From the NCBI RefSeq assembly GCF_988242995.1, contig NZ_OZ547043.1: a DNA stretch of 64,000 nucleotides; one strand, given 5' to 3'. Made by a program: the position numbers. Positions 60,801-62,936 of the stretch are shown in pieces; position 1 is the stretch's first letter; every line of letters starts with the position of its first letter.

Positions 60801-62936
60801 TATTCCAGCTCACAGCAATGAACGAATGTCGCTATAACTTTTGCCTCAACAGCATAAAGGAAAGCTGGCCAGAATTAAGTTTCCCTGGATCACATGCTGA
60901 TATTGGTGGCGGTTATGACCCACAGGAAGATGAGTACCTGTTTTTAAGTCGCCCGGCGATTGAAACGGTACTGGGAAATGTGCCGATGGAAGCGACAAGC
61001 GCTTACCAAAAAGCAGTACAGCAGGCAGAGTTATTGTGGCGCTATTCGACGCTGGCTCCGATTCTGCCTTCTGGTGTCCTAAAAATTGAATCCAATATTG
61101 ATGAAATAGCGTCGCCTGACCACTTAGGTAATGTGAGAAAACGGGTCGCTGCAGCGGTGACATTTCGCAGAACGATCACCAATGACTGGTCAAAGATTGC
61201 GTTAAGAGTAATGTATGAAGTCGCTAAAGAGGCAGGGGTAGTATTTGATGCCATTTCTGTTGCTGATAAGGAATTAAAAGTTCCCAGTCATTTAAAGGTA
61301 ATATGTGAAAAAGCAATTTCTCAGGGTAAAGCCGTTCTCTTGTGTACAGCGCCGATGCCTTTTTCTGATGATGAGCTTAAAACCATTGGGAAATATTTAC
61401 ACTGTTCTTCCAACTGGAATACCGTCGATTATCGATTAAAAAATAAGGTGTCTGCTGAAGTATCAGCGTTTAAGACGTTTAGTTTTGTTAATCGGCCGGA
61501 TGAAAATTGGACCAGAACTATATACGATATGCAAGGGAATAAACAAAATGGAATTTAATATAAAATTACTGTTTGTTATTACGTCTATGGTTCTTAACTT
61601 TAACGCAGCAGCGAAAGAAAAAATATTGTTGCTTGCACCCTATGATGAGTGGTATTTCAATTTTTTCTACCCTGATTCCCTACCAGCACAAGTTACCTAT
61701 GTGGAATTATTAGATACCGATGGCATCTATTATCAGTTCAGAACGCTGGCCAGTACCAATGCCAGTCCAGGAAGTGTTGGACAATGGAGCGAGAAAGTAT
61801 CAGGGATGTCGTCAGTTTTTAATAAAGCCAAAAACCCACCAATGTCTATCCATTTTTGCTGGGATTCAGTGATTGATAAAAAAGTGTATGAAACCTGGAT
61901 AACACTGGCGGGAGACGTCTGGAAATTGATGCTCACACCTTATTCACCACCAGGCGGTGGCAGTGAAAAGTATTATCTGCGGTATCTGTTAATCGGGCTG
62001 GCTCCGGAAGGAAAAGTACGGGTATGGCTTAATAAACGTGACAAACCCAATATTCGCCTGACGGATAAGCAGATTCTGATAGAAACGGTTTCAGGTGAAA
62101 AAATGGAAATGTGTAAAGGAATTTCCCGGCATGATTTTTCTCTTGGAGACGATGAATATGTTCTTGAGTTTATCAAAGATAAAAAATATCCCTATGGTAA
62201 CTGGTAAGTAACAATGAAAATAACAGCTAAAATAATTTATAGATTAACCATTGCGTTAATGATAGCCGGATCAGTCCAGACAGCAGCGAAAGAAAAAATA
62301 TCACTGCTTGCACCCTATGATGAATGGTATTTCCTTTTTTTCTACCCTAATGCGCTACCAGCACAAGTTACCTATGTAGAACTATTGGACACTGATGGTA
62401 TCTATTATCAGTTCAGAACGCTGGATGCTACCGCTCCGAGTTCCACTACTATTGGTCAGTGGAGAGATAATCTTCGGGTTGGGGTGTTATCATTCAATAA
62501 AGCCAAAAATCCCCCTATGTCTATCCATTTCTGCTGGGATTCAGTGATTGATAAAAAAGTGTATGAAACCTGGATAACGCTGGCGGGAGACGTCTGGAAA
62601 TTGATGCTCACACCTTATTCACCACCAGGCGGTGGCAGTGAAAAGTATTATCTGCGGTATCTGTTAATCGGTCTGGCTCCAGAAGGAAAAGTACGCGTAT
62701 GGCTGGAGAAACCTGACAAGCCCAATATTCGCCTGACGGATAAGCAGATTCTGATAGAAACGGTTTCAGGTGAAAAAATGGAAATGTGTAAAGGAATTTC
62801 CCGGCATGATTTTTCTCTTGGAGACGATGAATATGTACTTGAGTTTATCAAAGATAAAAAATATCCCTATGGCAACTGGTAGTTAACCAGTTGCACAATT
62901 TATTAAAGAGGAACGGAAAAGCATTTTTGTGGGTTA

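Follow-up and report, generated by a model that had tools for sequence, protein, structure and literature searches.

A tandem array of putative Tli1-family immunity genes with mosaic structure behind an Hcp-Tle1 effector gene in Escherichia

Results

We analysed a 64,000-nucleotide (nt) stretch of contig NZ_OZ547043.1 (RefSeq assembly GCF_988242995.1), referred to throughout as the window, in which two closely related genes follow the gene for a predicted type VI secretion system (T6SS) effector, all on the plus strand. The effector gene (59555..61558) encodes a 667-amino acid (aa) Hcp-Tle1 fusion of the Hcp-ET2 type. The two putative immunity genes, which we call A (61548..62207; 660 nt, 219 aa) and B (62214..62882; 669 nt, 222 aa), are arranged head to tail behind it. 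Gene A was defined from its open reading frame (ORF) and translation, and its start is identical to the one assigned by the Prokaryotic Genome Annotation Pipeline (PGAP) in Escherichia coli GF60. The start of A overlaps the effector stop by 11 nt and a 6-nt spacer, GTAACA (62208..62213), separates A from B, giving a repeat unit of 675 nt. A scan also detected a terminator-like hairpin, GCAACTGGTAGTTAACCAGTTGC, over the stop codon of the last gene of the array, which here is B (62872..62894). Given the overlap, the short spacer and the position of the hairpin, the effector gene, A and B look like one operon and are probably co-transcribed. Upstream of the effector gene, a consensus scan found a promoter-like site (TTAAAA-18 nt-TATAAT, 59450..59479, plus strand) that matches 10 of 12 positions; this is weak evidence, as promoter-like sites are rarer in this region than in its shuffles.

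Both parts of the effector are recognizable. The Hcp domain matches TIGR03344 (E 2e-36; 125 bits against a cut-off of 58.9) and PF05638 (E 6e-13, aa 6-138), and the Tle1-like phospholipase domain matches PF09994 (E 1e-10) and is 45% identical to Tle1-EAEC (E 6e-140). The GxSxG nucleophile motif is present as GFSRG at aa 332-336 (nt 60548-60562), together with conserved Asp/His motifs at aa 381 (FDTVAA) and aa 445 (GSHADIGGGY).

With regard to the two downstream genes, B matches Pfam family PF11153 (DUF2931; E 5.2e-26, residues 28-201) and is 47% identical over 194 residues to the characterised immunity protein Tli1-EAEC (BLASTP, E 2e-57). RefSeq labels both genes as DUF2931 family proteins in matching genomes, and NCBIfam gave no family match for either A or B. 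The immunity-like identity put forward in the original prediction, which was made from the window sequence, is thus supported by the Pfam match, the resemblance to Tli1-EAEC and the location of both genes directly behind an Hcp-Tle1 lipase. Inspection by eye suggested an export signal in both proteins: charged N-terminal residues and a hydrophobic core are followed by a putative A-x-A-like cleavage site (NAAA or QTAA) ahead of KEK. Neither protein has the lipobox cysteine that is found in Tli1-EAEC and in the Enterobacter homologues. From these Sec-type signal peptides and the missing lipobox cysteine, we infer that A and B are soluble periplasmic proteins.

A search of PDB chain sequences gave no meaningful match, the best hit being an unrelated binding protein (E 0.08). 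AlphaFold2 predicted a beta-rich immunity monomer (predicted local distance difference test [pLDDT] 75) in which the variable patches described below are modelled as loop or coil with lower pLDDT. Foldseek comparison of this monomer with the PDB gave nothing better than E 0.17.

Alignment of A and B with MAFFT gave an overall nucleotide identity of 84% (86% for the proteins), which is very unevenly spread along the genes. The signal peptides (type a in gene A, 61548-61613; type b in gene B, 62214-62288) are unrelated, with an identity of only about 40% in this part of the genes. In the mature part, identity is 89% over the first 141 nt, falls to 49% in a central patch of 69 nt (alpha in A, 61749-61817; beta in B, 62424-62492) and rises again to 95.6% over the remaining 390 nt. 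Within the latter, the segment 61841-62207 pairs with 62516-62882 at a 675-nt offset and contains only 14 differences in 367 nt (96.2% identity), with identical runs of up to 116 and 92 nt. The first reading of this sequence had pointed to a near-identical 3' segment of about 370 bp with a handful of substitutions and to differing signal peptides and central patches. All of this held; the patch peptides it quoted are exact, and its start of the segment in B (62511) is 5 nt off (62516). The uneven divergence became evident in a segment-wise form of the pairwise alignment that it had proposed as a check (89%, 49% and 96% in successive segments).

In a maximum chi-square scan, mature nt 141-212 stood out from the rest, with 36 differences in 71 nt; the chi-square value of 113 was reached in none of 200 permutations. 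Divergence between A and B is therefore non-uniform with statistically supported breakpoints, the pattern by which gene conversion was to be recognised. The differences in the 3' half are clustered as well, five of them lying in 61820-61856 beside the central patch and eight in 61997-62045, and this suggests several small exchange tracts as opposed to one clean tract. A second variable patch, which like this clustering was not part of the first reading, was found near the C-terminus (A 62115-62168; B 62790-62843); in the window it is identical between the two genes, both carrying the class that we call x. The duplication itself is not an assembly artefact, as the complete genome of GF60 matches 59400-62950 at 99.8% identity and 569 complete genomes cover at least 80% of it.

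To place this pair in context, the modules of the array were compared across 17 Escherichia loci (the window and 16 others, numbered with an L prefix), plus the single-gene locus of strain Z0117EC0013 (L033). The genes in these arrays are built from a limited set of parts: a signal peptide of type a or type b; a central patch of class alpha (ASTNASPGSVGQWSEKVSGMSSV), beta (DATAPSSTTIGQWRDNLRVGVLS) or gamma (DSTIPVSTTIGQWQENLSGGMTA); a short mid-region module (KVRVWLNKRDKP, KIGVWLEKPDKP and related forms); and a C-terminal patch of class x (KGISRHDFSLGDDEYVLE) or y (NGRSAYKHGYSYPESTKN). Arrays at the same site contain one, two, three or four genes. The single-gene array is a-gamma-y. Two-gene arrays take the form alpha-x/beta-x (the window), alpha-y/beta-x, alpha-y/beta-y or alpha-x/gamma-y, and three-gene arrays the form alpha-y/beta-x/gamma-y, which is the majority form, or gamma-x/beta-x/beta-y. 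Both alpha-x/gamma-y/beta-x/gamma-y and alpha-x/alpha-y/beta-x/gamma-y were seen among four-gene arrays. All six combinations of the three central with the two C-terminal classes occur, in violation of the four-gamete rule, and the signal peptides recombine too, type a being joined to alpha, beta or gamma (hybrid genes are a-gamma in L027 and L033, a-beta in L013 and b-alpha in L005). Taken together, the six patch combinations and the varied partners of signal peptide a require recombination inside the genes.

This comparison also bears on the near-identical 3' halves of A and B. In most strains examined, including L002, L007, L009, L010, L011, L029 and L030, the C-terminal patch of gene A is y; in the window, L004, L005 and L008, gene A has B-type sequence in its place, with patch x. 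Since the usual form of gene A has patch y instead, the segment 61841..62207 of A, 96.2% identical to B 62516-62882, is most likely a B-derived recombination or conversion tract that brought patch x with it.

The same GTAACA spacer was found between every pair of array genes in the other strains. Moreover, the last 15 nt of each gene are set by its position in the array and not by its identity. Whichever gene is last ends in GGC AAC TGG TAG, within the hairpin, and internal genes end in GGT AAC TGG TAA followed by GTAACA; the stem-forming GGC...TAG is a synonymous variant. Such position-linked 3' ends would be the expected product of unequal crossing-over between 675-bp units.

Diagnostic 129-nt queries were used to count the central classes in the 573 complete E. 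coli genomes that carry the locus (hereafter, island genomes). Alpha was present in 569, beta in 529 and gamma in 544 of these, so that each class is found in at least 92%. The window, which is without gamma, belongs to a minority of about 5%. In the gamma-class (C-type) genes (L002 11490-12158; also L004, L005 and L008), the RefSeq/PGAP start is an internal Met giving a 207-aa protein that begins MIAGSVQTAA. The frame is open from an upstream ATG that follows the usual 6-nt spacer, and this longer frame of 222 aa begins with a complete type-b signal peptide, MKIIAKIIYRLTIALMIAGSVQTAA; the annotation probably misses the first 15 codons. We considered whether the C-type gene is a 5'-truncated pseudogene, as the annotation would suggest, and rejected this, the full-length frame with its type-b signal peptide being intact.

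The effector is itself mosaic. Its first variable patch (aa 252-266, 60308..60352) reads RQLVLDDDVFNIQEK in the window and KDSEINAKSAKIQRE, KDASLYEGLSKVQRK or KDIYIYEGLSKVQKK in other Escherichia alleles. The second (approximately aa 566-621, 61250..61417) begins AISVADKELKVP in the window and EIPDDDYYKYPE in an alternative C-terminal allele that is the rarer one, being found in 13 of the 573 island genomes. Four combinations of the alleles at these two patches occur among Escherichia.

We also asked how the patches compare with their surroundings in age. Between A and B, the proportions of synonymous (pS) and nonsynonymous (pN) differences are 0.57 and 0.49 in the central patch, 0.32 and 0.045 in the mature region upstream of it, and 0.16 and 0.01 in the 3' region. 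Synonymous differences are significantly more frequent in the patch than in the 3' region (Fisher p 5e-4). The ratio dN/dS is about 0.7 in the central patch and 0.06-0.11 in the flanks, which places the backbone under purifying selection. When 37 homologues were aligned, variability across the family was highest in the two patches and at the end of the signal peptide. Salmonella carries central classes that are alpha-like (GSTNASSASVGKWNEEVMGIHSD) or gamma-like and C-terminal classes that are x-like or y-like, in each of the four possible pairings. The alpha patch of E. coli shares 57% identity with the alpha-like patch of Salmonella and 22% with E. coli beta. Backbones, on the other hand, share 95-99% identity among E. 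coli copies, 90-98% among Salmonella copies and 73-78% across the two; they cluster by genus, and patch classes cut across genera. The near-saturated synonymous divergence of the patch and the classes held in common with Salmonella point to old alleles kept apart while their surroundings homogenise. This is the signature of a backbone under concerted evolution around patch alleles that are either older than the genus split or moving between genera.

A side observation comes from E. coli 2013C-3033 (L032 4648-6146), where tandem Tli1-EAEC genes that are 94% identical lie behind a VgrG-linked Tle1-EAEC gene. The members of this pair differ nowhere but in the C-terminal patch (KHPDGYVYYGDTPDFIKGKI versus KSDFTYGYDEDIKEFIKDKT), which is also variable in the family of the window, and they show the same pattern in miniature.

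The effector and immunity genes of the window form a 3.5-kb island with a GC content of 34-47%, compared to 55-61% in the flanks; the drop from 0.61 to 0.34 occurs at the promoter-like site. According to the annotation of matching genomes, the island is flanked on the left by ybbP (56972-59386) and on the right by the core-genome gene mnmH (selU, tRNA 2-selenouridine synthase; 62934..63941, minus strand). It was found in 573 of 5,426 complete E. coli genomes, in all of them on the chromosome, and the ybbP-mnmH site is its position in every E. coli locus fetched, where the genes are annotated as tssD and DUF2931 family proteins. Several of the island records are labelled O25b:H4-ST131. The chicken meat isolate GF60 is the only genome that matches the window at 99.8%, all others being at 97.5% or below.

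Outside E. coli, the Hcp-Tle1 plus DUF2931 architecture is present in E. whittamii, in Salmonella enterica (carriers include subsp. arizonae, S. enterica and subsp. salamae), in Pseudocitrobacter, in a Kluyvera genome and in a Joint Genome Institute (JGI) genome, with one to three immunity genes per locus. In Enterobacter hormaechei and in E. coli of the enteroaggregative (EAEC) type, the toxin is a VgrG-linked cargo within a T6SS cluster, with two lipoprotein-type DUF2931 genes behind it. The JGI genome, the Kluyvera genome and Salmonella subsp. salamae (L021, L024, L026) also have the island beside selU/mnmH, and in one S. enterica locus (L022) it adjoins the kdp operon and a photolyase gene instead. 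L023 has an immunity gene for which no effector gene was called, a possible case of orphan immunity.

Elsewhere in the window, the interval 22373-47943 contains a TolC-like ORF (22373-23728), a 6,924-aa ORF (23831-44605), a 720-aa ORF (44609-46771) and a 391-aa ORF (46768-47943). The near-identical counterpart in GF60 is labelled as a giant immunoglobulin-like domain protein, a TolC family protein, a type I secretion permease/ATPase and an HlyD adaptor, and the interval looks like a locus for a type I secreted giant adhesin.

Discussion

We consider it likely that A and B belong to a tandem array of Tli1-family (DUF2931) genes for periplasmic immunity proteins, expressed along with a T6SS Hcp-Tle1 effector and made mosaic by recombination between repeat units. 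A plausible scenario is that each protein is exported by way of its Sec-type signal peptide and binds the Tle1 lipase domain injected by neighbouring cells, so that membrane damage would be blocked. Homologous recombination between the 675-bp units would be the source of the mosaic: unequal crossing-over would alter the copy number and make hybrid genes, and gene conversion would homogenise the conserved backbone. The two loop-like patches would persist through this as old discrete allele classes (alpha, beta and gamma; x and y) that are reshuffled like cassettes. In the window, the near-identical 3' halves of A and B would be explained by a B-type tract, including patch x, that replaced the more usual y-type 3' end of A.

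Recognition of toxin variants is probably the task of the patches, in which case they would tune which Tle1 variants are neutralised and an array would give broader protection than a single gene. Such a role is made plausible, indirectly, by the retention of discrete classes, by the prediction of the patches as loops, by the presence of two variable patches in the effector and by precedent from V. cholerae, where two DUF2931 proteins that are approximately 80% identical (Tli1tox- and Tli1tox+) differ in their ability to neutralise Tle1Vc, such that modest differences set specificity (PMC10395195). A bolder version of this idea would be that the DUF2931/Tli1 family has two cassette-like specificity loops under balancing selection across enterobacterial genera, reshuffled in arrays that form a repertoire against co-diversifying Tle1 variants. 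We regard this version as possible and put it forward tentatively.

Several observations weigh against the interpretation given above. Strain Z0117EC0013 (L033 3420-4079) has a single immunity gene, with signal peptide a, central patch gamma and C-terminal patch y, behind an intact effector of the common allele. This gene appears to be what remained when crossing-over joined the first gene of an array to one further along and deleted the rest, and the retention of the common effector with a gamma/y gene alone means that alpha is not indispensable, at least in this strain; the patch classes may be redundant towards the resident toxin. Across the 17 Escherichia loci, no consistent one-to-one pairing of effector alleles with immunity patch classes was found. 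Decay is also seen: in L010 the effector has a frameshift and an internal stop and one immunity copy is frameshifted, in L028 the effector has an internal stop and again one immunity copy is frameshifted, and in L029 both copies at C-type gene positions are frameshifted. Furthermore, the signal peptides of A and B are by-eye calls only, and an AlphaFold2 model of a fused chain (the Tle1 domain, a 30-residue linker and mature A, from an 84-row mixed paired and unpaired alignment) was weak (pLDDT 66.8; predicted template modelling score 0.53) and uninformative on the interface.

The frameshifted copies, the lack of association between effector and immunity patches and the coexistence of a lone gamma/y gene with the common effector all favour a scenario in which an unstable repeat simply throws off extra copies that are redundant or neutral (dosage or drift), and the patches are unconstrained loops without a role in specificity; their prediction as coil with lower pLDDT would fit this as well. 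We grant this scenario a real, if rather small, chance. It does not account for patches that fall into a few discrete classes, conserved in E. coli and recognizable across genera, where a continuum might have been seen, nor for the presence of each of the three central classes in at least 92% of island genomes. Strong purifying selection on the backbone of every copy and the difference in specificity between V. cholerae proteins that are 80% identical also argue against it. The origin of the mosaic by recombination between repeat units also has to be weighed against another history, in which the gene was recently duplicated in tandem and the central patch alone then changed rapidly under positive selection. 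The 96% identity of the 3' halves and the elevated dN/dS of the patch (about 0.7 compared to 0.06-0.11 in the flanks) are what this history would produce, but protein-level selection would not bring pS in the patch to 0.57, close to saturation, when the flanks are at 0.16 and 0.32. In addition, the same patch classes were looked for outside the lineage and are present in Salmonella and other genera, the signal peptides of A and B are unrelated, and gene A has the other C-terminal patch in most strains examined. We therefore hold this history to be highly improbable. The original prediction had suggested recent duplication or gene conversion with localized diversification. Conversion is the part that is supported, by the copy number of one to four, the hybrid genes and the six patch combinations of other strains; recent duplication followed by local diversification is not supported, given the synonymous divergence of the patch and the classes common to Salmonella.

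The reading of A and B as separate members of an array of immunity genes has also been set against two models taken from other systems. One is that both proteins are needed jointly, for example as a hetero-oligomer, to neutralise a single resident toxin. In Aeromonas hydrophila NJ-35, two DUF2931 genes (Tli1 and Tli2) lie directly downstream of Tle1AH, their copy number ranges from none to three among strains, and both were reported to be needed together for protection (PMC7245790). The class counts in island genomes (569, 529 and 544 of 573) likewise mean that most E. coli arrays must hold at least two genes. We nevertheless think joint action unlikely: unlike the A. hydrophila pair, the family of the window includes single-gene arrays behind intact effectors (in Z0117EC0013, Salmonella enterica, S. 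salamae and a metagenomic contig), the make-up of the partners varies freely among strains, and one copy is enough in EAEC and V. cholerae (PMC13133936, PMC10395195). The other model is sequential displacement of effector-immunity modules, where the extra genes would be orphan immunities of replaced toxins. T6SS clusters of V. cholerae have several immunity genes per effector, for which protection against the toxins of other strains has been proposed and which evolve by recombination (PMC5361080). This model is typified by a single effector with several immunity genes behind it, and an effector mosaic with alternative C-terminal alleles would be in keeping with it. However, the V. cholerae arrays consist of unrelated immunity families with effector remnants between them, whereas the array described here is of one family, with only 6 nt between members, no effector remnants or unrelated immunity families in that space, backbones that are 95-99% identical and shuffling within genes. 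Crossing-over inside genes explains the copy-number variants, and we consider displacement quite improbable.

A toxin of the Hcp-ET2 type with Tli1/DUF2931 immunity is already known and is annotated in hundreds of genomes, and there are documented cases from several genera of DUF2931 genes in tandem behind Tle1. In enterotoxigenic E. coli (ETEC) PE321, Hcp-ET2/ETI2 was shown to mediate T6SS-dependent antagonism via Tle1 phospholipase activity (Ma et al. 2017, per reviews PMC6730261 and PMC6099711). That system has the same fusion of Hcp with DUF2235/Tle1, followed by one or more immunity genes, and the window effector, which may be a different allele, has both domains. A mosaic immunity array is not mentioned in the reviews. 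The Tle1-EAEC/Tli1-EAEC pair of the Sci-1 T6SS is also related (toxin domain 45% and immunity protein 47% identical), and there too the immunity genes form a tandem pair. In contrast to the window toxin, which is an Hcp fusion encoded on a separate island, Tle1-EAEC is a VgrG-bound cargo encoded within the T6SS cluster, and Tli1-EAEC is an outer-membrane lipoprotein with the lipobox LLTGC, whereas A and B have Sec-type signal peptides with no cysteine. The V. cholerae Tli1 proteins are DUF2931 proteins with signal peptides, as here, but they come from different strains and loci, and no cassette structure has been described for them.

Among searchable papers, none was found that deals with mosaicism or gene conversion within T6SS arrays of DUF2931/Tli1 immunity genes. 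The cassette-like shuffling of two old patches appears to be undescribed in that literature, and we see it as a modest refinement of what is known about the evolution of immunity arrays: the array is not a simple duplicate, since it holds a small number of old patch variants in shuffled form. There is also a practical side, in that a 675-bp repeat is handled poorly by short-read assembly and automatic annotation, the starts assigned to C-type genes being an example.

Which E. coli strains can live side by side in the gut depends in part on T6SS lipase toxins and the matching immunity proteins, and the island described here is present in about one in ten complete E. coli genomes. The patch variants could reveal how specificity is encoded in a family without a solved structure. 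If the patches are indeed specificity loops, a short array of this kind would amount to a small, recombination-driven library of immunity against variant Tle1 toxins.

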